This document shows, in pieces, positions 18,551 to 27,831 of a stretch of 64,000 bases of DNA; within the stretch, counting starts at the first letter, position 1, and each line of letters opens with the position of its first letter. The DNA is taken from positions 32,001 to 96,000 of the forward strand of contig CBDBKE010000001.1 of assembly GCA_965206645.1 (NCBI GenBank). Direction: 5' to 3'. The notes beneath the pieces were generated by a model that ran no database searches, was not told the DNA's origin, and worked only from the letters and a program-made list of their open reading frames with translations. The position numbers and the translations under genes were made by a program. The stretch comes from Terriglobia bacterium (GTDB lineage: Bacteria; Acidobacteriota; Terriglobia; JAJPHL01; JAPKYU01).

Positions 18551-20377
18551 TCAAGCCTCCCTACTGTTCCGCCAATTGCGCAGCCTGGCAACCAACGCCT
18601 TGAGGGTCAGGCGCAACAGTTGCCACCAAGCGGGCCGCCGGGCGCGAGTGAGTTCACCAGCCAGATAAAGACGGCGACAGGCATCGCGGCGCAGCTTGCC
18701 ACTGGGGGTCTTGGGAATGGTCTGGGGTGGGACCAACACCAGTTTGTCGGGCGGATGGCCCAGACGGGCCAGTCGGCGCATGATTTCGGCGCGCACCTCA
18801 GCCCGCGGACCCGGACGAGTCTCGCGAGTCTCGGCCACCAGCACAATCCGCTCGGTGCCGTGTTCGGGGTCGGTGACGGCAAAGGCAGCAACACACCCTT
18901 TTCGCACGCCCCTGACTTCGCTGGCCACTTCTTCAAGCTCCTGGGGGTAGATGTTGTGGCCGGCCTTAATGATGACGTCCTTGATGCGCCCGGTGATGTG
19001 CAGTTCGCCGTCGGCTAGGTAGGCCAGGTCTCCTGAATCGAGCCATCTATTAACCAGGCCATCACCCAGGCCATCGCACCGGATGGCCTGGGTTGCGTCC
19101 GGGTTGCGGTAGTAGCCGCGCATGGCCGAGGGTCCCTGGAATTGCAGTCGCCCCTCCACCCTCTCCGGCACGGGTTGGCCGACGGCGTCAACGATGCGGG
19201 CTTCGTGGCCGGGCAAGGGTTGGCCTACGGAGACAAAACGCAGCGGCGCCGGATCGCGGGCATCGCTGGGCACGGCCCGTTGCTGCCGGACGAACGGCTC
19301 TCGCTGGATGGCATCGACACGCGGCGGGCGTCCCAGAGGCGAAAAACTGAGAGCCACGGCGCATTCGGCCAGCCCGTACACCGGCATCAGGGCTTCCGGC
19401 CGGAACCCGTACGGGGCAAAGCGGGCCGTGAACCGCGCCAGGGTCTCGGGGCTGATGGGCTCGGCGCCGTTCATGGCCACGCGCCACGAGCTGAGGTCGA
19501 GTCCGTCCAGCGCCCGGTCGTCCACCCTGCGCACGCACATCTCATAAGCGAAGTTGGGCGCTGGCGACAGCGTGCCGCGGTGCTCATGGATCATCTGCAG
19601 CCAGCGTTGCGGCCGGCGCAAGAAAGCGATCGGCGAGGTGACGGCGACGGGCAGGCCGTAATAAAGGCAAAAGAGCCAGCAGCCGATCAGCCCCATGTCG
19701 TGATACAGCGGAAGCCAGCAGACGCCGACGTCGTCCGGACGCACCTCGACGCCCTGGCCGATGGCGCGCACATTGCTGAGGACGTTGGCATGGGTCAGCA
19801 CCACACCTTTTGGCTCCCCGGTGCTGCCGGAGGTGTACTGGATAAGGGCGATGTCGGTGGGCTGCAAGGCGTTTCGGGACGGCTTGGCTGTTGCCGCGGC
19901 CAGCGCCTCCACCGTGGTAACGCTACGCAGGCTGGGAATACTTGGCCCGAGCAGTCGTGCCAGAGTGCGCGCTTCCCGGACGGTGATCAGCACTCGGGCT
20001 TCGGCATTGCGCAACAGTTTCGTTTGACGCTGCACGTACTCCTCGATCCGATCGGCCCGCACCGGCGGGTAGATCGGCACTGGAATCCCTCCGGCCAAAG
20101 TCACTCCCAGAAACGCGAAGAAGAAGTCTGGGCTGGTTGGCAACATCAGGGCCACGGTCTGGGCCTGCTCGAGTCCCTGGGCAAGCAGTCCTCCGGCTAC
20201 CTCCGAGGCGGCACTCAGCAGTTCGCCGTAGCTGATCGTGCGCAGCCGGCCGTCGTCCTGCCGCAGATGGATGTGAGCGCGGTCAGGTGTCGCCTGGGCC
20301 CGGGCGCGAAGCACCTCGTCCAATGTCTCAACCGCTACTGCCGGCGCTGTCGCCGCTCCTGTGGCAGCTGTTCTCAT
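18551..20377 (-). CDS. Fatty acyl-AMP ligase (FAAL-type adenylation enzyme)
   Basis: QYTSGSTGEPKGV, WLPLYHDMGLIG, PNFAY, YGLAE, DSGDL, GRIKD, PKTPSGK. Confidence 0.9.
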   Translation of the reverse strand: MRTAATGAATAPAVAVETLDEVLRARAQATPDRAHIHLRQDDGRLRTISYGELLSAASEVAGGLLAQGLEQAQTVALMLPTSPDFFFAFLGVTLAGGIPVPIYPPVRADRIEEYVQRQTKLLRNAEARVLITVREARTLARLLGPSIPSLRSVTTVEALAAATAKPSRNALQPTDIALIQYTSGSTGEPKGVVLTHANVLSNVRAIGQGVEVRPDDVGVCWLPLYHDMGLIGCWLFCLYYGLPVAVTSPIAFLRRPQRWLQMIHEHRGTLSPAPNFAYEMCVRRVDDRALDGLDLSSWRVAMNGAEPISPETLARFTARFAPYGFRPEALMPVYGLAECAVALSFSPLGRPPRVDAIQREPFVRQQRAVPSDARDPAPLRFVSVGQPLPGHEARIVDAVGQPVPERVEGRLQFQGPSAMRGYYRNPDATQAIRCDGLGDGLVNRWLDSGDLAYLADGELHITGRIKDVIIKAGHNIYPQELEEVASEVRGVRKGCVAAFAVTDPEHGTERIVLVAETRETRPGPRAEVRAEIMRRLARLGHPPDKLVLVPPQTIPKTPSGKLRRDACRRLYLAGELTRARRPAWWQLLRLTLKALVARLRNWRNSREA

Positions 20378-20669
20378 CGTGACATGATCGAATAACTGTT
20401 AAATGTTAGGGCTGAAGGCGAAAGGTTTCAAGGCCCAACGCAGCTGCGTAGTGGGTCAATCTACGGTAAGGGCGTTACACATCCAGTGAGCGGCGTAGCA
20501 GCATCGGCAAATTACTAGCCGACTTGTGGGGACCTATCCACTGAATCTGAGGTAAGCGTCTTGTACTCAAAAACTTGGACTGACGCAAAGCAGGCTACTG
20601 CACGCCGATGGTGATGGATAAGAAGACGTCACACGTTTTCCATCCGGGGTCCAGGTGGCCTGGAGTGGC

Positions 20670-21686
20670 CTATTCGTCTGGGACGATGCAAACGGTATCC
20701 TCACCACGGATGGGGATACCGTCAAAGGTTTCCGCCTCTAACACCGCAACTGATTGGCCCACCTCGATCATGAACTGTGCAGTGTGGACCTGGCAGACCA
20801 GATCAATTAGCCCATTCCCATTGACGTCCTCTTCATGGCAGAGGAACTTATCGCTCGTGCCCACCATTTTGATGCTGGCCCCTGCAAGAGCAATGGTGTC
20901 CAGATCGACCTCCTCGGGCGCATTGAAATTCGGCGTGCTTAGAATCGCCACAGGGATCACGCCAGCGGAGCCGAGGTCGATGCTATTGGGATCGCTACCC
21001 GGCTTGATGTCGATGGTCACGGTCAAGGCCCCAAACTTGAATTGGGTCACGAGTCCCTGGGTGTCATTATCACCAGTTGTTGCATTAACACTATCGGGGC
21101 CACCAGGAAACAGACGAGAAACCCCATCCGCTCCCTAGGAATGCACATCAAAAAAAGTTGTGAAGACGGGCGAAAAGTTTCTCACATCGAGCAACAGGTT
21201 GCCCTGAGCCTTGTCATAAAGGAATGGAGTCGTCAAGTTTACCAGGATATCAAAATCTTTTGGCCCTCCGGTAGGTCCTGTGAAGGAACTAGAAAGGGCA
21301 AGGGCGCCATTAAAGGCCACGGTATTGTCGGCCCCGACGTTATTTGCAAGCGTAGTGTCTAATCCGTCCACTGGCAGTGTCGTTGTGGACAGGTCGATTT
21401 GAATGTTCGGGATCGTCGAGGAGAACGCGATACCAAAGGTCGCATCAGGGCGAAAGCCAAGCTGCGTGATAAGAATAGGACCCGCAGGAAACTCGGAGCT
21501 GCTGTAAACTTGCTGATAGCGCATCGAAATCCAGAACAGGCTAAATGGAATAGCGTTATTACTATTGCCCTCTACCGTCGCCAGGGAATTGGGGACAACG
21601 ATAGGCTCAGCCTGCGCTACCCCCGAGAGCAGACCTAGCACGAGAATCCAAACAAAAACTCCTAACCTGCTCCGCCGGAATTTCAT
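20670..21686 (-). pseudogene. Secreted two-domain protein interrupted by a single in-frame TAG (21135-21137)
   Basis: Signal peptide, IVVPNSLATVEGNSNN...RYQQVY domain, DVHS*GADGVSR continuing in frame into TIDIKPGSDPNSI...IPVAILS domain. Confidence 0.75.
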
Positions 21687-21744
21687 CTATTTCCCCTTTC
21701 TGGGTTTGCCGCTTCCTTCCAAAGCCAGCTAGCCCGGCCAAGCC

Positions 21745-21822
21745 GAGGTTTCCCAGGTTATAGGCAATGATGGTCAGCCACAGTCGCACCTCGTTGGACC
21801 GGGACCGATGACAAGTCAGCAT
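21745..21822 (-). pseudogene. IS1380-family transposase C-terminal remnant
   Basis: LTCHRSRSNEVRLWLTIIAYNLGNL resembles the SCHRF.ANE.RL....AYNL motif. Confidence 0.7.
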
Positions 21823-22009
21823 ACGACGCCGGCCAGGAGCGTTGTCAGTAGGGCAAAAGTCTTATTAGCACCATAGGGACTTCTTCTGGATAGCATCGCG
21901 GCTCGCTTGCTCTGTTCCGCTGACTGGTCTGCTCTGTTCCTGCCTCCCGCCTCGGATAGGTCCCCAGAAACGGGCTAGCGTTTATCAATCCCGTTTCAGT
22001 TGTGCCATA

Positions 22010-22229
22010 TAGTCGGCTTATCGGAAACTGACCCATTATCCGCAACTGCGGCCCTGGACTATAATCAGCTGGGGATGCAGGTTAGCGAGATTTTCTTCTC
22101 CATTCAGGAAGAACCCACCTTTGCCGGCGCGCCCTGCGTGTTCGCGCGGCTCACCGCATGCAACCTGCGCTGCTCCTGGTGCGATACGGAGTACGCCTTT
22201 TACGACGGCCAGCTCATGAAGCTGGACGA
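22010..22229 (+). repeat. Direct repeat copy 1 (IR end, promoter and queE 5' end); copy 2 at 25081-25300
   Basis: 220 bp gapless alignment, 19 mismatches by manual count. Confidence 0.95.
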
Positions 22230-22248
22230 CGGCATAGGAAAACACTAA
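22075..22248 (+). pseudogene. queE: Truncated decayed copy of queE 5' end
   Basis: MQVSEIFFSIQEEPTFAG...CNLRCSWCDT, with QGE mutated to QEE; stops after 57 codons. Confidence 0.9.
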
Positions 22249-22473
22249 CCGACTACGGAGGACTAATCTGCCAAGTCTGAGCCAACTCTTGCCGTTTCAG
22301 AGAATTATTGAGGAAAATCTGAAACGGCAGAATCCGCGCAGGCGCAGTAACGCGTCCCTACCCGCCGGCGAGTTTCCCGCCGAGATAACCGCTGGGCGCC
22401 GCCGGGTTATGCCGGCTGTCCGGGTTCTTCGAGCACCGGTTGCCTTCTTATTACGTATCGCAGCTTCCATCGG

Positions 22474-22502
22474 TTGACAGATATGAATGGTTTTGGTAGC
22501 AT
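22474..22502 (+). promoter_or_regulatory. Sigma70 promoter giving a probable leaderless transcript
   Basis: TTGACA(22474)-17 nt-TAGCAT(22497) with TGn extension; ATG 22509 lies 6 nt after the -10 box. Confidence 0.8.
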
Positions 22503-22508
22503 CAACTC

Positions 22509-22832
22509 ATGTTCCACAGCGTAATGCGGTGGGCATTTGCGGGGGTCTTCTTCGCCACAGCCTCCTGTGCTCAGGTCTGTTCGGAGATTGGTTTGCAAGG
22601 GCAGTCCGCGTCTGCTTGCTCGCATGAGCAGTCAGGGAAAGAGCAGCCGGGAGACAATCAGTGCAAAGCTTGCATGCAAGGGCACTTTTTCCAAGAATCA
22701 AAGGTGAAGATGGATTGTCCGACCGGGACATCATTGGAGCCGGCGGATAGCATCACTGCGCTTCTCGCGCCGGCGAGGAAGTTACCCGCCAACGAACCCG
22801 CGTTATTCACGCCTCTCGTCTTGCGCATTTAG
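22509..22832 (+). CDS. Small secreted Cys/His-rich protein, candidate metal-responsive leader
   Basis: Signal-like N-terminus, CAQVC, CSH, CKACMQGH, Pro-rich tail ending PLVLRI. Confidence 0.7.
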   Translation: MFHSVMRWAFAGVFFATASCAQVCSEIGLQGQSASACSHEQSGKEQPGDNQCKACMQGHFFQESKVKMDCPTGTSLEPADSITALLAPARKLPANEPALFTPLVLRI

Positions 22833-22931
22833 CGATTCGCTTCCTTTCTGCGTTCGTTTTCTAGAAAAAGGTTCCGGTTTAACGGCCGGAGTCGTTCGTC
22901 TCTTCTAGGCTTTCTTTTCGGGAGGAGTGCG

Positions 22932-23918
22932 ATGACTCTTCTGTATGCAGATCATCTGGATCAAGCGGGTTCCTTCGCGCGTCATCGGCCTCCGCGGCAG
23001 CGCCTAATCCTGCTGGCGTTTCTCGCGGCTGGAATAGCGCCCTGCGCGTTCTCGCAAGGACCGATGCCGGAAGAAGGAGCTACCCTGTTCCCGAGCGGCG
23101 CGTTCATTTCCTACAGTTCGATCTTTACGACGGGCAGGTTCGAACCGGGCACAGACTCGGATACCCCCGGAGCGAGAACCCGTCCCACTTTCCAGCACGA
23201 GGTCCCGCTCACCTTCAGCATGTCCTTACGCCGGGACGTCCAATTCACCGCCGTTGTGCCGATCGTGACGAAGCGGGTGAAGTTGCCCGATACCGAATTC
23301 GGCGGTACGGGGCTGGGAGACGCCCTGGTATCGCTGAAGTACCGTTTCCTCCGGCGGGATTCGGAGCGCGGCACTACGCAAGCGGCCGTGACCGTTGGCC
23401 CCAAGCTGCCGACGGGAGCAACCGGCCAGCGGGATTCCCAAGGCAGCCTGCTGCCCATTCAACTCCAGCCGGGCTCTGGCTCGACCGATTTTTTCGTCAA
23501 GGTAAACGGCACCCACACGGGTCTTTTCAATCTTCGTCGCCTCGTTGCGGATGCTTCCTTTAGCTATTTGTTTCGAACGGAAGGAAGCCGGGATACCCGG
23601 CTCGGAAACGCGATGGTAGCGCGCCTTTGGTTGCCTTACCGCCCGTACCAAGCCAAAACTCTGGGGGCTGAATGGTTCCTCGGTCCCTCTCTGACCTGGC
23701 AGCATCGGGATCGAGACCGGCAGTCAGGCGTCCGGCAGCTTTTTACGGGGGGAGACTCCCTGACTCTGGGATTCACATCGTACGTGAGCCCCGTGGAAGG
23801 GTTGGTTTTCTGGGTCGGCCTGGAGTTTCCAATCTACCAAAACAGCAATGGGGCGCCGCATGAGCTGTCGCGACGGATCAATGTGGGCGTGACCAAACAA
23901 TTCGTTCTGCGTCCCTGA
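22932..23918 (+). CDS. Outer-membrane beta-barrel 'transporter' (Phenol_MetA_deg-like)
   Basis: Signal peptide; GLGD...LKYRF, KLPTG, QPGSGSTD; amphipathic strands; SD GGAGGAG. Confidence 0.75.
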   Translation: MTLLYADHLDQAGSFARHRPPRQRLILLAFLAAGIAPCAFSQGPMPEEGATLFPSGAFISYSSIFTTGRFEPGTDSDTPGARTRPTFQHEVPLTFSMSLRRDVQFTAVVPIVTKRVKLPDTEFGGTGLGDALVSLKYRFLRRDSERGTTQAAVTVGPKLPTGATGQRDSQGSLLPIQLQPGSGSTDFFVKVNGTHTGLFNLRRLVADASFSYLFRTEGSRDTRLGNAMVARLWLPYRPYQAKTLGAEWFLGPSLTWQHRDRDRQSGVRQLFTGGDSLTLGFTSYVSPVEGLVFWVGLEFPIYQNSNGAPHELSRRINVGVTKQFVLRP

Positions 23919-23942
23919 GGATGCAGGTACAGGAGGCAAACA

Positions 23943-24476
23943 ATGAAACGGAAGAGTTTCCTTTGGGCTGTGATGCTCGTGAGCGCTTGGATCCCGGCCC
24001 TATCCGCCGGAATTGACCGCGTGGAAATGCGCGTGCAAGGGATGACCTGAAATTTCTGAGCCTACGGGGTGCAACAGCACCTTCAACGCCTGGATGGCGT
24101 TGCGAAAGCCGAAGTCAGTTTGCTCGACGGGCGTGTTACTGTTTTTCCCAAGCCAGGCGCCGCGCTCGATCCCTCTCGAATTTTGAAGGCCGCTTACGAC
24201 AGCGGGGTCTCCGTTGTAGAAATGGAAATGACAGCCTCCGGGTCCTTGCAGGACTCGGGGCAAGGCCTGGTTTTCCGCCCGACCTCGCAGCAGTCGTTCG
24301 CGGTCAACCCCAATGCGCTCACGGAGAAATTTAAGCCTCTGGGAAGCTCCGGCCGGGACGTTTCGATCCGGGCGCGGCTTTACCAGGCTCCCCCCGGCGG
24401 GGCGAAATCAAAGGATCCTCCGAAGGGCCTGAAGCCGGCGAAGGACCTGAAGCTGGAAGTCCTGGAGATCCACTAG
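23943..24476 (+). CDS. Periplasmic HMA-domain protein with two in-frame UGA codons (putative UxxU selenoprotein), 177 aa
   Basis: SD AGGAGG; MKRKSFLWAVMLVSAWIPALSA-GIDRVEMRVQGMT*NF*AYGVQQHLQRLDGVAKAEVSL; TGA at 24048 and 24057 occupy both Cys positions of GMTCxxC. Confidence 0.85.
24060..24108 (+). promoter_or_regulatory. Candidate SECIS element(s): two tandem hairpins after the UGAs
   Basis: GGGGTGC-AACA-GCACCTT (24066-24083) and CAACGCC-TGGAT-GGCGTTG (24084-24102). Confidence 0.55.
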
Positions 24477-24488
24477 GAGAGTTGCCCC

Positions 24489-25025
24489 ATGGCGGTTGCA
24501 AAGATGCTCGTCCTTCTTCTGCCTGCCTTCCTGTTGCAGCTTGCCTTCGCTGCATGCAGCCGGTCCCCTCCCTCCCCGCAATTGGGGCACGGCACGATGA
24601 ATATGGAAATTCAGCCCAAAGAGCTATCGCGCCTACCCTCGTTCGCATTCAAGGACCTCTCGGGGCATGTAGTTTCTTCGGATCAGTTTTCCGGAAAGGT
24701 GCTACTCGTGGATGTCTGGGCCACTTGGTGCCCGCCCTGCAAGCAGGAGATGCCGTGGTTCCAGGAGCTTTACGAACAGTACCGCGACCAGGGACTCGAA
24801 GTGATCGGGATTTCCATTGACCCGAATCCTGCCGATGCCCGCCGATTTACCCAGGAACTCGGAATCACCTACACGCTGCTTCACCATCCCGAGGTAATGC
24901 AGGAATGGGGGTTGCTGGGCCTCCCGACGACCCTCGTCGTGGACCGCGAGGGAAGCATCCGCGGGAAGATTGTGGGTTTTGATTACAAGGAAACGTTCGA
25001 AGCGGCTTTGAAGGAGTTGCTCTAG
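24489..25025 (+). CDS. TlpA-family thiol-disulfide reductase, lipoprotein
   Basis: Lipobox-like FAAC; VWATWCPPCKQEMP; GLPTT. Confidence 0.9.
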   Translation: MAVAKMLVLLLPAFLLQLAFAACSRSPPSPQLGHGTMNMEIQPKELSRLPSFAFKDLSGHVVSSDQFSGKVLLVDVWATWCPPCKQEMPWFQELYEQYRDQGLEVIGISIDPNPADARRFTQELGITYTLLHHPEVMQEWGLLGLPTTLVVDREGSIRGKIVGFDYKETFEAALKELL

Positions 25026-25080
25026 ATCGGTGGTAGCGACAATTCTGTTCTGAACTAGTTGGCAATTTCAGTTGGACGAG

Positions 25081-25300
25081 TAGTCGGCTTACCGGAAACT
25101 GAGCCGTTATCCGCAACGGCGGCCCTGGGCTATAATCAGCTTGGGATGCAGGTTGCCGAGATTTTCTTCTCCATCCAGGGAGAATCCACCTTTGCCGGCG
25201 AGCCCTGCGTGTTCGTGCGGCTCACCGCGTGCAACCTGCGCTGCTCCTGGTGCGACACCGAGTACGCTTTTTACGACGGCCAGCCCATGGAGCTGGACGA
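25081..25300 (+). repeat. Direct repeat copy 2 (degenerate IR end, TATAAT and intact queE start)
   Basis: Matches 22010-22229. Confidence 0.95.
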
Positions 25301-25787
25301 GGTGCTCCGTCGGGTGAGCACCTATCCGGCGCGACTGGTGGAAATCACCGGCGGCGAGCCCATGCTTCAGGAGGGAGAAGTGCTGCCCCTGATGGCGCGC
25401 CTGCTGGAGCAGGGCTACCGGGTGCTGCTGGAAACCAGCGGGGAACGCTTCCTGGGCCGGGTCCCGCCCGAGGTCGTCAAGGTGATGGACGTCAAGTGCC
25501 CCGGCTCGGGCGAAGCGGAAAAATTCTGCTTCGAGAATCTGCAAGTACTGTCACCAAGTGACGAAGTGAAATTCGTGCTGGCGGACCGTCCCGATTACGA
25601 GTTCGCTTGCCAGTTCCTCCAGCGTCACGGGTTATGCGGCAAAGTGCGGGCCGTGATCTTCTCGCCGGTCTTCGGGCAACTGGAGCCACGCCAGCTCGCC
25701 GAATGGATCCTGGCCGATGGCTTAGACGTTCGCCTCGGACTCCAATTGCACAAATTCATCTGGGACCCGGCGATGCGGGGAGTTTAA
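25146..25787 (+). CDS. queE: 7-carboxy-7-deazaguanine synthase (radical SAM)
   Basis: EIFFSIQGE, CNLRCSWCDT, ITGGEP, LQLHKFIW; adjacent to queC. Confidence 0.93.
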   Translation: MQVAEIFFSIQGESTFAGEPCVFVRLTACNLRCSWCDTEYAFYDGQPMELDEVLRRVSTYPARLVEITGGEPMLQEGEVLPLMARLLEQGYRVLLETSGERFLGRVPPEVVKVMDVKCPGSGEAEKFCFENLQVLSPSDEVKFVLADRPDYEFACQFLQRHGLCGKVRAVIFSPVFGQLEPRQLAEWILADGLDVRLGLQLHKFIWDPAMRGV

Positions 25788-25905
25788 CGAGCGCGACGTG
25801 CTGAATGCACCATGCGGCATAGCAGCGCGCTGGATAGCAGTGCCGGCCGGGCCAGCAATGGCCAGGAAAGCGGATGCGGGGAAGTCTCGCGGAGGAGCTT
25901 AAGCC

Positions 25906-26646
25906 TTGGCCACACCGAAAGCGGCCAGACCTAAAGCGGTCGTCTTACTCAGCGGCGGGATGGATAGCTGCGTGACGGCCGCCGTCGCACGGGCCGAGGG
26001 CTACCGCCTGGCGCTGCTGCACAGCAGTTACGGGCAACGGACTGAGGCCCGCGAACGTCTCACGTTTGAACAGATGGCAGATTTTTATTCTTCATTGGAG
26101 CATGAGGAGGTCCCCCGCCTAGTCATCGAGCAGCGCTACTTGGCGCGGATCGGCGGCTCAAGCCTGACCGAGGCCGGCATCCCGGTCAGCCCGGCCAAGC
26201 TCGACTCGGCTGAAATTCCCACCAGCTACGTTCCCTTCCGCAACGCGCATTTCCTGGCGGTGGCAGTCTCCTGGGCCGAGGTTCTCGAGGCAACGCGCAT
26301 CTATGTCGGGGCAGTCGCCGCCGACAGTTCTGGGTATCCCGACTGCCGCCCGGAGTATTACCGCGCCTTTCAGCAGGTGGCGGAGCTCGGCACGCGGCCG
26401 GAAACGAAGCTGGAAATCGTCGTTCCACTCGTCCGGCTGCACAAGCACGAGATTGTGAAGAAGGGGATTGAATTAGGCGCACCTCTTCATCTAAGCTGGT
26501 CTTGTTACCAAGGTAGCGACAGAGCTTGCGGTGTGTGCGATAGCTGCGCGTTGCGCCTGAGGGCTTTCGAACAGGCCGGGGTGGAAGACCCGATCCCGTA
26601 CGAGCGGAAGCCTTCTTACTCAACTGCCCCGCAGGTGCCTCACTAA
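25906..26646 (+). CDS. queC: 7-cyano-7-deazaguanine synthase
   Basis: LLSGGMDS, YVPFRN, GYPDCRPE, WSCY...CGVCDSC. Confidence 0.95.
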   Translation: MATPKAARPKAVVLLSGGMDSCVTAAVARAEGYRLALLHSSYGQRTEARERLTFEQMADFYSSLEHEEVPRLVIEQRYLARIGGSSLTEAGIPVSPAKLDSAEIPTSYVPFRNAHFLAVAVSWAEVLEATRIYVGAVAADSSGYPDCRPEYYRAFQQVAELGTRPETKLEIVVPLVRLHKHEIVKKGIELGAPLHLSWSCYQGSDRACGVCDSCALRLRAFEQAGVEDPIPYERKPSYSTAPQVPH

Positions 26647-26703
26647 GGCCTGTCCCGCACCACAGGCGGTTCGCTAGCCTGACGGAACAGCAACGGAGGA
26701 ATT

Positions 26704-27831
26704 ATGCGGAAGCGTGATCTTCTGATCTTGTTGGCTGTGCTTGGCTGGGCGGTCAGTTTTTGTGTTCCCGCACACGCCCAGTTCGCCAGGATGACGGGCG
26801 TAGTGAAGGGGAGTGATGGCCAGCCCGTCGCCGGCGCTCAGATCCTCATCGAGAACATCGACAGGAATTTAACTGCCAAGGTTAAGACCAACAAGAATGG
26901 CCGTTTTCTCCATGCCGGACTCACAGCCTTCAACCGCCATAACGTGACCCTCTTCGTCAATGGGCGGAAACGGAGCACGCGGCCAGGCATAGCGCTGGGA
27001 GGGCCGGGCTCCGAGACGACAGTTGATTTCGACTTGCAGGCGTCCCGCAGGCGGGCAGGCGGCCGAGCAGGCGGAAGTACGGCCCTCACCGCGAAACAGC
27101 GTAAGGAACTCGAGAAGCAACTCGACAAGGAGAATGTTGAGCGGGGCAAGATGGGGCAGCTCAATAAGGCCTTCGGCGATGGAGTGGCAGCGCTGAGGAT
27201 CCGAAATTACGACTTGGCCATCGCCCAGTTGGAAGAAGCGGCACAGTTGGGCCCCCGGCAACCCCCCGTGCTTGCGCATCTGGGGGAAGCCTACTTGGAA
27301 GCGGGCAAAGCCAGGCGCGGCACGGAATCCCGGGAGCTTTTTCAAAAGTCCGTCGAGGCTTACGGGAAGGCTGTTGCCTTGAAGCCGGAGGAGCCTGGCT
27401 ATCACAACAACTTTGGATTGGCCCTGGCTTTTTCGGGTGACTTGGAGCGGGCCGAGGAGGAACTGAGCAAATCCGCTGAGCTTGACCCCTCTAATGGCGG
27501 CCGTTACTTTTTCAACCTGGGCGCCGTGCTGACCAACAATGCCCAGATCAAGGGGGCTGTCCTGGCCTTCCGCAAGGCCACCGAGCTCGACCCCAAATAC
27601 TCGATGGCCTGGTATCAGCTTGGCGTGTCGTTGAGCGCTGAAGCCACTCTGGATGAGAAGACCGGCAAGATCACCCCGGTCCCCGGCACGGTGGAAGCCC
27701 TGCAGAAGTACATCGAATTGGAGCCGACTGGGGCCTACGCCGCAGGCGCCAAGTCCTTGATTGAATCGTTTGACGCCAAGATTGAGACCCAGTTCAAGAA
27801 GGAGAAGAAAAAGAGGCGCCGGCGGCGGTAG
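26704..27831 (+). CDS. Secreted TPR protein with N-terminal carboxypeptidase-regulatory-like domain
   Basis: Signal peptide; GVVKGSDGQPVAGA; several TPR repeats; basic tail. Confidence 0.85.
   Translation: MRKRDLLILLAVLGWAVSFCVPAHAQFARMTGVVKGSDGQPVAGAQILIENIDRNLTAKVKTNKNGRFLHAGLTAFNRHNVTLFVNGRKRSTRPGIALGGPGSETTVDFDLQASRRRAGGRAGGSTALTAKQRKELEKQLDKENVERGKMGQLNKAFGDGVAALRIRNYDLAIAQLEEAAQLGPRQPPVLAHLGEAYLEAGKARRGTESRELFQKSVEAYGKAVALKPEEPGYHNNFGLALAFSGDLERAEEELSKSAELDPSNGGRYFFNLGAVLTNNAQIKGAVLAFRKATELDPKYSMAWYQLGVSLSAEATLDEKTGKITPVPGTVEALQKYIELEPTGAYAAGAKSLIESFDAKIETQFKKEKKKRRRRR

Follow-up and report, generated by a model that had tools for sequence, protein, structure and literature searches.

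The subject of this report is a cassette of four co-oriented genes spanning positions 22509-25025, on the forward strand, of a 64,000-nt stretch of DNA (hereafter the window) from a Terriglobia bacterium (GenBank assembly GCA_965206645.1, contig CBDBKE010000001.1, positions 32,001 to 96,000), which encode a small secreted Cys-rich protein, an outer-membrane beta-barrel, a secreted HMA protein and a TlpA-like lipoprotein (Table 1). It is well supported by comparison of related loci that selenocysteine (Sec) is decoded at both in-frame TGA codons of the HMA gene, aided by a conserved candidate selenocysteine insertion sequence (SECIS) hairpin downstream, and the four genes are, as judged from their conserved order and upstream regions, inherited together and share a promoter. 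As for function, we hold with moderate confidence that they form an expressed operon through which the cell envelope handles a thiophilic metal or metalloid, the likeliest ligand seeming to be copper(I), followed by mercury(II) and then by arsenic(III) or others. An earlier note on this DNA, made by a model from the letters alone, had placed the four open reading frames (ORFs) in the same way: coordinates, strand and the gaps from the barrel stop to the HMA start (24 nt) and from the HMA stop to the TlpA-like gene (9 nt, or 12 nt counting the stop codon) all agree with our reading. The host genome (4.4 Mb, 61% G+C, four contigs) holds the cassette as a single copy.

Table 1. Positions, in window coordinates, of the cassette genes, their signals and the flanking duplication.
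Feature	Position	Strand	Details
Left copy of the 236-nt duplication of the queE 5' end	21994..22229	+	Right copy 25066-25300, within intact queE 25059-25787
Promoter-like site	22474..22502	+	TTGACA 22474-22479, 17-nt spacer, TAGCAT 22497-22502; ends 6 nt before ATG 22509
Small secreted Cys-rich protein gene ('leader ORF' of the earlier note)	22509..22832	+	107 aa
Outer-membrane beta-barrel gene, COG4313 / FapF (Phenol_MetA_deg-like) class	22932..23918	+	328 aa, 12 strands
Secreted two-domain HMA selenoprotein gene	23943..24479	+	Signal peptide, HMA domain with GMTUNFU, C-terminal beta domain of ~80 aa
First in-frame TGA (Sec36)	24048..24050	+	TGA in 155/160 loci, TGT/TGC in 4
Second in-frame TGA (Sec39)	24057..24059	+	TGA in 158/160 loci, Cys in 1
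Hairpin 1, 3' of the UGAs	24066..24083	+	Weaker support of the two; RNA fold, alignment
Hairpin 2, candidate SECIS element	24084..24102	+	7-8 bp stem, G in apical loop
TlpA/ResA-like thiol:disulfide oxidoreductase lipoprotein gene	24489..25025	+	178 aa, WCPPC

When TGA is read as Sec, the HMA gene gives a single 177-aa protein in which U36 and U39, within the motif GMTUNFU, occupy the CxxC positions of the HMA fold, whereas under translation table 11 it falls into two ORFs (23943-24050 and 24069-24476). Related DNA was collected for 160 loci, made up of 80 of the 153 related genome loci found and 80 of the at least 492 metagenome loci, and across them the motif is UxxU in 155, CxxU in three and CxxC in one, the remaining locus being cut before the motif. 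The signal peptide and first strand ahead of the TGAs are conserved, and the alignment shows invariant residues on both sides of the UGAs; the recurrence of the TGA pair, together with that of the gene order, goes far beyond chance. In the databases, all 38 matches of the HMA protein are 127-138 aa long and cover at most 76% of the query, every entry examined is annotated as a truncated hypothetical protein, and the 37 homologues that were aligned all start at the same Val/Met, four residues past the second TGA, as is expected of gene callers that stop at UGA. A profile search of 1.84 billion representatives returned such truncated ORFs again as its top matches and, at lower ranks, full-length proteins (167-187 aa) in which a signal peptide is followed by a CxxC HMA domain and a matching C-terminal domain. 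Moreover, selA, selB and selD are present in the host genome above curated cut-offs, a tRNA-Sec was found by aragorn, and SelB scored above its cut-off in all five of the other cassette-bearing genomes tested. The locus therefore combines the hallmarks expected of a selenoprotein gene, namely conserved in-frame UGA codons with flanking coding conservation, Cys homologues, a stem-loop 3' of the UGAs and the selA, selB, selD and tRNA-Sec genes, and the two-Sec protein proposed by the earlier note is borne out; it has a signal peptide. The host selD gene (G000:C2:761488-762411) also holds one in-frame TGA and probably encodes a selenoprotein itself.

Regarding the RNA signal, hairpin 2 is paired in 98.0% of cells over 136 distinct sequences, and sliding the whole structure by 1-3 columns leaves pairing at only 30-52%. 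The stem closes with G-C in 90 sequences and with C-G in 34, which amounts to one compensatory pair, the swap being accompanied by a paired amino-acid change (G...Q to Q...A). The two UGAs, nine bases apart, would be served by one or two hairpins. Some features of the RNA speak against the proposed decoding signal: hairpin 1, with 88.5% of cells paired, offers no compensatory pair and hence no covariation, and 41 nt separate the first UGA from the hairpin-2 loop, a distance longer than is usual for bacterial SECIS elements. That the TGAs are instead true stops, the locus being a 35-aa peptide followed by a separate 135-aa protein or else a pseudogene, would fit the habit of gene callers of annotating only the downstream ORF in every database entry, but it is extremely improbable, as the modelled HMA fold runs across both TGAs, codons are conserved on either side, Cys stands for Sec in four loci and in distant homologues, and the hairpin is conserved in a genome with a complete Sec machinery.

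The association of the four genes is equally well documented. With counts restricted to loci having room for the neighbour in question (at least 1 kb for the barrel), 123 of 125 loci have the barrel gene immediately before the HMA gene, 131 of 131 have the TlpA-like gene immediately after it, and 99 of 107 have, just ahead of the barrel, an ORF that ends in [LIVM]R[IVL] and contains a CC doublet; among the eight exceptions to the latter, two have variant tails and four are the CxxU and CxxC loci. Among the 77 loci that extend over 9 kb or more, clustering of all ORFs singled out four families at fixed positions, namely the HMA gene in 77, the barrel in 77, the TlpA-like gene in 76 and the small gene before the barrel in 69, and beyond these four families nothing but antisense shadows occurs in more than 14 of the 77. 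The expectation of the earlier note that the genes would be found together elsewhere is strongly upheld by this UGA-aware comparison of neighbourhoods, and in a fixed order. The HMA protein was found in no fewer than 153 species-level genomes (Acidobacteriota is the label of 77 among the 80 listed) and no fewer than 492 stretches of metagenome; when 401 genomes of the phylum were sampled, the strong form proved limited to the host genome and one other, 27 more having weaker relatives (E <= 1e-10) in which the number of TGAs is two, one or nil. Among the 160 loci, Cys replaces Sec at one position or both in L042, L049, L089 and L093 only, which belong to a single subclade that is devoid of the small Cys-rich gene and has an extra barrel loop and, downstream, a second large barrel gene; in this one lineage, the loss of Sec may be connected with that of the small protein. 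In another locus, L097, the small gene is present ahead of the barrel as two divergent copies of opposite orientation (208-618 on the reverse strand, 775-1197 on the forward strand).

Of 96 unique regions upstream of the operon, 85 show the pattern TTGACN-N17/18-TANNNT with the start codon 3-10 nt behind it, as compared with 0.05 per shuffled set. A promoter so near the start codon implies a leaderless or near-leaderless mRNA with no room for a regulatory leader, and the operon, going by this spacing, probably yields a leaderless mRNA. Counts of k-mers revealed no conserved operator upstream of the operon, and Rfam returned no family above chance in 22300-25200 or 21500-22500. The locus is matched at no less than 99% by metatranscriptome contigs from four runs of a single study; these begin at 22525-22532 and leave 22300-22493 uncovered (a weak hint), and they bridge the small gene and the barrel, the barrel, HMA and TlpA-like genes, and the TlpA-like gene and queE. 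The strain of the RNA library lacks 6 nt at window position 25057, in the gap between the TlpA-like gene and queE, and has seven single-base differences across the cassette.

The first gene, described by the earlier note as a leader ORF that senses metal, is instead a conserved secreted-protein gene. Its family consists of proteins of about 118-119 aa that carry a signal peptide, contain CC...C...CC motifs and end in ...LRI; of their residues, C24, C36, C37, M40, C42, C52, C53, P105 and R117 are marked invariant, including six Cys; the window copy is divergent, yet it aligns and ends in LVLRI, and the C-terminal LRI is kept even in distant subfamilies. The sensing role finds no support in a conserved protein family whose promoter lies 3-10 nt before the start codon, with no conserved operator in view. 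No Pfam or NCBIfam family matches the small protein, and the ESM Atlas gives Acidobacteriota hypothetical proteins exclusively. A tblastn search with the window copy had returned no match in the 160 loci (E 1e-5), and the absence of the gene from the relatives was rejected as a false negative due to sequence divergence, clustering and the tail motif having recovered the family.

The second gene encodes, as the earlier note proposed, an outer-membrane channel, and a structural match places it in the COG4313 / FapF class at a sequence identity of 12-16% to 4RL8 and 5O65. The window barrel itself matches no Pfam or NCBIfam family (for PF13557, no match at E <= 0.01), while its homologue P0047 scores 34.1 bits with PF13557 against a cut-off of 22 and several database homologues carry this family. 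In the COG4313 family, Pput2725 (4RL8) forms a barrel of 12 strands with its lumen blocked by the N-terminal segment, and it is thought to import hydrophobic molecules (PMC4493636). Known members of the class, FapF (5O65) included, act on hydrophobic molecules or amyloid subunits, and the available portions of the literature examined link none of them to an HMA protein.

The fourth protein, with the active site WCPPC, scores 85.7 bits with AhpC-TSA and 83.7 bits with Redoxin, both Pfam families above cut-off; its NCBIfam scores (ResA 99.8 bits for a cut-off of 170, TlpA 85.1 bits for a cut-off of 230) fall short, and we therefore call it TlpA-like and not TlpA. It has the thioredoxin fold, the WCxxC motif and the export or anchoring typical of TlpA/ResA proteins, and among its homologues WCxPC is found in 146 of 147 loci and a lipobox-like motif in 119 of 147, in accordance with the lipoprotein assignment of the earlier note. 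Elsewhere in the host genome, a CcdA/DsbD_TM gene (G000:C3:398036-399372) adjoins a TlpA paralogue 37% identical to the cassette protein, the two probably being a housekeeping pair. The closest functional precedent is found in Bradyrhizobium, in which TlpA keeps the ligand cysteines of ScoI and CoxB reduced before copper binding (PMC6669012). The TlpA-ScoI-PcuC-CoxB system resembles the cassette in having a periplasmic thioredoxin-like reductase that keeps the Cys pair of a copper chaperone reduced; it differs in that the presumed client here is an HMA-fold selenoprotein and not Sco, the reductase is a lipoprotein encoded beside it, and no oxidase genes lie near the cassette.

The third protein belongs to the Pfam family HMA (PF00403; E 1.5e-8, 35.3 bits for a cut-off of 24.8). 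Its AlphaFold2 model (predicted local distance difference test score, pLDDT, 87.9) shows a ferredoxin-like HMA fold at residues 23-94, with the beta-alpha-beta-beta-alpha-beta order and the two-ligand loop of this fold, followed by a five-strand beta domain at residues 95-177. Structural matches in the PDB (CopZ, MerP, Atx1, CCS and P-type ATPase domains) cover the HMA part only, and the C-terminal beta domain gives weak, OB-like hints. The best NCBIfam names are all those of metal chaperones. Fold and profile comparisons agree best with CopZ and Atx1, which reside in the cytoplasm, have a single domain and rely on Cys. The model NF041115 (UxxU_metal_bind), whose cut-off is 95 bits, gives 45.4 bits for the window protein and 34.9, 37.5 and 44.3 bits for three relatives, so that none of them is a member, and the alignment reaches model positions 1-57 of 74 only; with MerP (TIGR02052), the scores are 32.1 bits for the window and 33.8-44.6 for relatives, below the cut-off of 92.55. 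Like the NF041115 proteins, the window protein has an HMA-type fold in which both CxxC cysteines are replaced by Sec, and it differs from them by a signal peptide, a C-terminal domain of ~80 aa and a fixed four-gene cassette. A secreted HMA protein with a two-ligand site is also shared with the MerP/MerT/MerR systems, to which the cassette opposes Sec in place of Cys, an extra C-terminal domain, a barrel, a small Cys-rich protein, a TlpA-like reductase and no MerA.

Part of this is already on record, since a UxxU family with two Sec is listed as 'putative mercuric reductase', with credit to Zhang & Gladyshev 2007, in two papers (PMC13188914, PMC9312934) whose available portions do not contain the term 'Acidobacteri'. 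No account of the cassette, or of HMA-fold selenoproteins of Acidobacteria, was found in the literature consulted. The earlier note did not recognise the combination as a described pathway, and this stands for the cassette as a whole and not for the UxxU HMA-type selenoprotein, which is already catalogued (NF041115, PMC13188914, PMC9312934). What appear undescribed are the present family with its C-terminal domain, the three fixed partners and the wide spread in soil Acidobacteriota.

Distant relatives help to place the cassette in a broader context. Their two-domain HMA proteins carry motifs such as GMTUPLU, GITUALU and CPFC, and they are encoded beside Phenol_MetA_deg barrels (L193, L197 and L198, with tblastn matches in others), small CC...LRI proteins (L201, L202), MerR-family regulators (L192, L193) and TlpA-like or AhpC/TSA proteins (L199, L193). 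In three of them the gene following the HMA gene (L201:6504-6935, L202:5563-5976, L203:5488-5898) encodes a three-helix membrane protein of 137-144 aa with a CC pair in helix 1. The L201 copy (P0307) falls in ESM Atlas clusters automatically named MerT (0.96-0.99), and identities of 56-66% link the L202 and L203 copies with it and with one another; none matches the MerT models of Pfam (PF02411) or NCBIfam, and their likeness to MerT is read from those cluster names and from the CC pair in the first transmembrane helix. Distant variants of the cassette would in this respect add to the MerP-like component both a MerT-like protein and MerR-family regulators. As distant relatives, whether Cys or Sec forms, keep the small protein, the barrel and the secreted HMA protein, this core is, so far as gene content can tell, older than the Sec form, and its variable partners are those of heavy-metal systems. 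Further two-Sec HMA subfamilies occur in the phylum (L185, L187, L188, L190 and L191, from genomes G156, G423, G108, G217 and G333), with motifs GMTUPLU, GLTUPLU and GITUALU, and some of them adjoin NHL-repeat propeller genes.

Around the cassette itself, in the 77 long loci and with neighbours annotated from one representative per cluster, Ser/Thr kinases are found in 14, CDF transporters in 10, MerR-family regulators in eight, ArsC-type reductases and ArsM-type methyltransferases in five each, and IS110 transposases and resolvases in four each. Assignment of the MerR-family neighbours to MerR, CueR or ZntR was attempted and abandoned, all scores being below cut-offs. In the window, the cassette is bracketed by the direct duplication of the queE 5' end (89.8% identity; Table 1), and three same-genus genomes align with queE-queC at 86-95% from window positions 25073-25077 on, with nothing cassette-like there. 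Given this absence and the queE duplication, the cassette looks like a module gained or lost at this site. Short stretches of ~75-90 nt (21746-21820, 21953-22041 and 22232-22310) flank the queE fragment and have many copies in the genome at 82-93% identity; they also occur in other families of the class, one genome listing nine copies, and they may be miniature mobile or repetitive extragenic palindromic (REP)-like elements. They were considered as tRNAs and rejected, there being no tRNA genes in 20000-27000 and no Rfam family either.

The case for a metal is built on the HMA-fold matches, the names of the chaperone models, the CDF, MerR, ArsC and ArsM neighbours of a minority of loci and the MerR- and MerT-like partners of the relatives. 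In the mechanism that we propose, the barrel would pass the metal, or a metal complex, across the outer membrane, and the periplasmic di-selenolate (UxxU) site would capture it as a soft metal, with the small Cys-rich protein acting as an additional metal-binding partner. The TlpA-like protein, supplied by CcdA, would re-reduce the Se-Se or Se-S bond as well as the Cys pairs of the small protein, a role suggested by the precedent of TlpA acting on ScoI and CoxB (PMC6669012). Regarding direction, MerT-like partners and COG4313 kinship suggest an inward relay, and resistance-type neighbours and FapF kinship an outward one; we would slightly favour the inward sense because distant cassettes end in a MerT-like inner-membrane protein and COG4313 proteins are uptake channels. 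At acid pH selenols are ionised, and their hold on soft metals is firmer than that of thiols, which would suit the periplasm of a bacterium living in acid soil. The overall reading of the earlier note, an envelope module for metal handling, remains plausible with its strong co-occurrence, once the sensing leader, which was wrong, is removed from it.

Several observations nonetheless weigh against this reading as a whole. Metal-related neighbours are confined to a minority of the 77 long loci, the window cassette has no metal transporter or metal-sensing regulator within it, and the host genome yielded no MerT-like gene by tblastn and no MerA above cut-off. CopZ-type and MerP-type models score alike on the HMA proteins, so that no single metal is singled out. 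The 17-18 nt promoter spacer and the lack of a conserved operator in the k-mer counts give no indication of metal induction, and the RNA evidence consists of assembled contigs from one study, compatible with a single transcript and not proof of it. Diselenides have very low redox potentials, and their reduction by a TlpA-type protein may be unfavourable. Finally, COG4313 channels are linked to hydrophobic molecules and not to metal ions (PMC4493636).

Among the other explanations, the one that survives best, unlikely as we consider it, turns the relay around: the FapF-like barrel would secrete the unfolded small Cys-rich protein, with LRI as its targeting signal, and the latter would bind a toxic metal outside the cell or carry it out while the UxxU protein scavenges metal in the periplasm and the TlpA-like protein keeps the cysteines of the cargo reduced up to its export. 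In favour are the signal peptide of the small protein, its six invariant Cys and a C-terminal LRI preserved in distant subfamilies, the CDF, ArsC, ArsM, transposase and resolvase neighbours, which suggest resistance islands, and the lack of the cassette at this site in three same-genus genomes. However, no FapF-type accessory genes are found, the COG4313 uptake channel matches the barrel equally well, distant cassettes carry a MerT-like importer, and transfer of metal from a di-selenolate to thiols would be uphill. Somewhat more doubtful is a hitherto unrecognised ligand-exchange pathway across the envelope, suited to acid soils and able to work without an energised pump. In such a pathway, LRI would thread or export the small protein through the barrel so that it catches soft metal at the cell surface, the di-selenolate HMA protein, ionised at pH 4-5 where thiols are not, would draw the metal inward by affinity, and the dedicated TlpA-type lipoprotein would reset both partners. 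If it were true, Sec would have taken the place of Cys at a metal-chaperone site in adaptation to low pH and an oxidising environment, and not to catalysis.

A purely redox role, in which the UxxU protein would be a diselenide/diselenol centre in a chain running from CcdA through the TlpA-like protein and the HMA-like protein to the small protein or another envelope substrate, strikes us as improbable. It would be in line with the majority of bacterial selenoproteins described in two surveys (PMC13188914, PMC9312934), which are redox proteins with UxxC or CxxU motifs, with the fact that the only enzyme-like member of the cassette is a thioredoxin-fold reductase, and with a Pyr_redox_2 gene near one distant locus and an AhpC/TSA-TPR gene near another. 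Nevertheless, the fold and the context of the motif (GMTxxxC/U in a beta-alpha-beta-beta-alpha-beta arrangement) are those of metal chaperones, the partners of the relatives are MerR- and MerT-like, and Cys-rich CC motifs have been tied to heavy-metal binding in a 2022 preprint (10.1101/2022.07.06.499078), which, for another selenoprotein system, makes the case that contact with heavy metals is marked by CC and CU motifs and, in its available portion, does not mention UxxU or TlpA.

Distinctly improbable, finally, is that the cassette is dedicated to mercury, the HMA protein being an analogue of MerP that traps Hg(II) or organomercury in the periplasm of bacteria from acid organic soils and the channel admitting neutral Hg complexes. 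The HMA protein is secreted like MerP (32-45 bits with MerP models), relatives have MerT-like and MerR-family partners, and selenium has an extreme affinity for mercury; COG4313 channels, moreover, pass hydrophobic molecules (PMC4493636). Yet the MerP score is far below its cut-off and CopZ models do as well or better, the genome has neither MerA above cut-off nor a MerT-like gene, the MerR-family regulators cannot be assigned among MerR, CueR and ZntR, and a wide spread in soil metagenome-assembled genomes better fits an everyday metal. We thus retain, at the moderate confidence given above, an envelope operon for a thiophilic metal or metalloid.

Cytoplasmic redox enzymes of anaerobes make up most of what is known of bacterial selenoproteins, and to these the present family opposes a secreted, non-enzymatic and predicted metal-binding selenoprotein with two Sec, accompanied by three fixed partners of which two have no known function. 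The immediate practical gain is the correct annotation of four gene families. Moreover, the family would offer a natural test of what selenolate ligands contribute at a classic CxxC metal site. If the metal role proves true, the supply of selenium in soil would be tied to the handling of copper, mercury or arsenic in a very abundant soil phylum.

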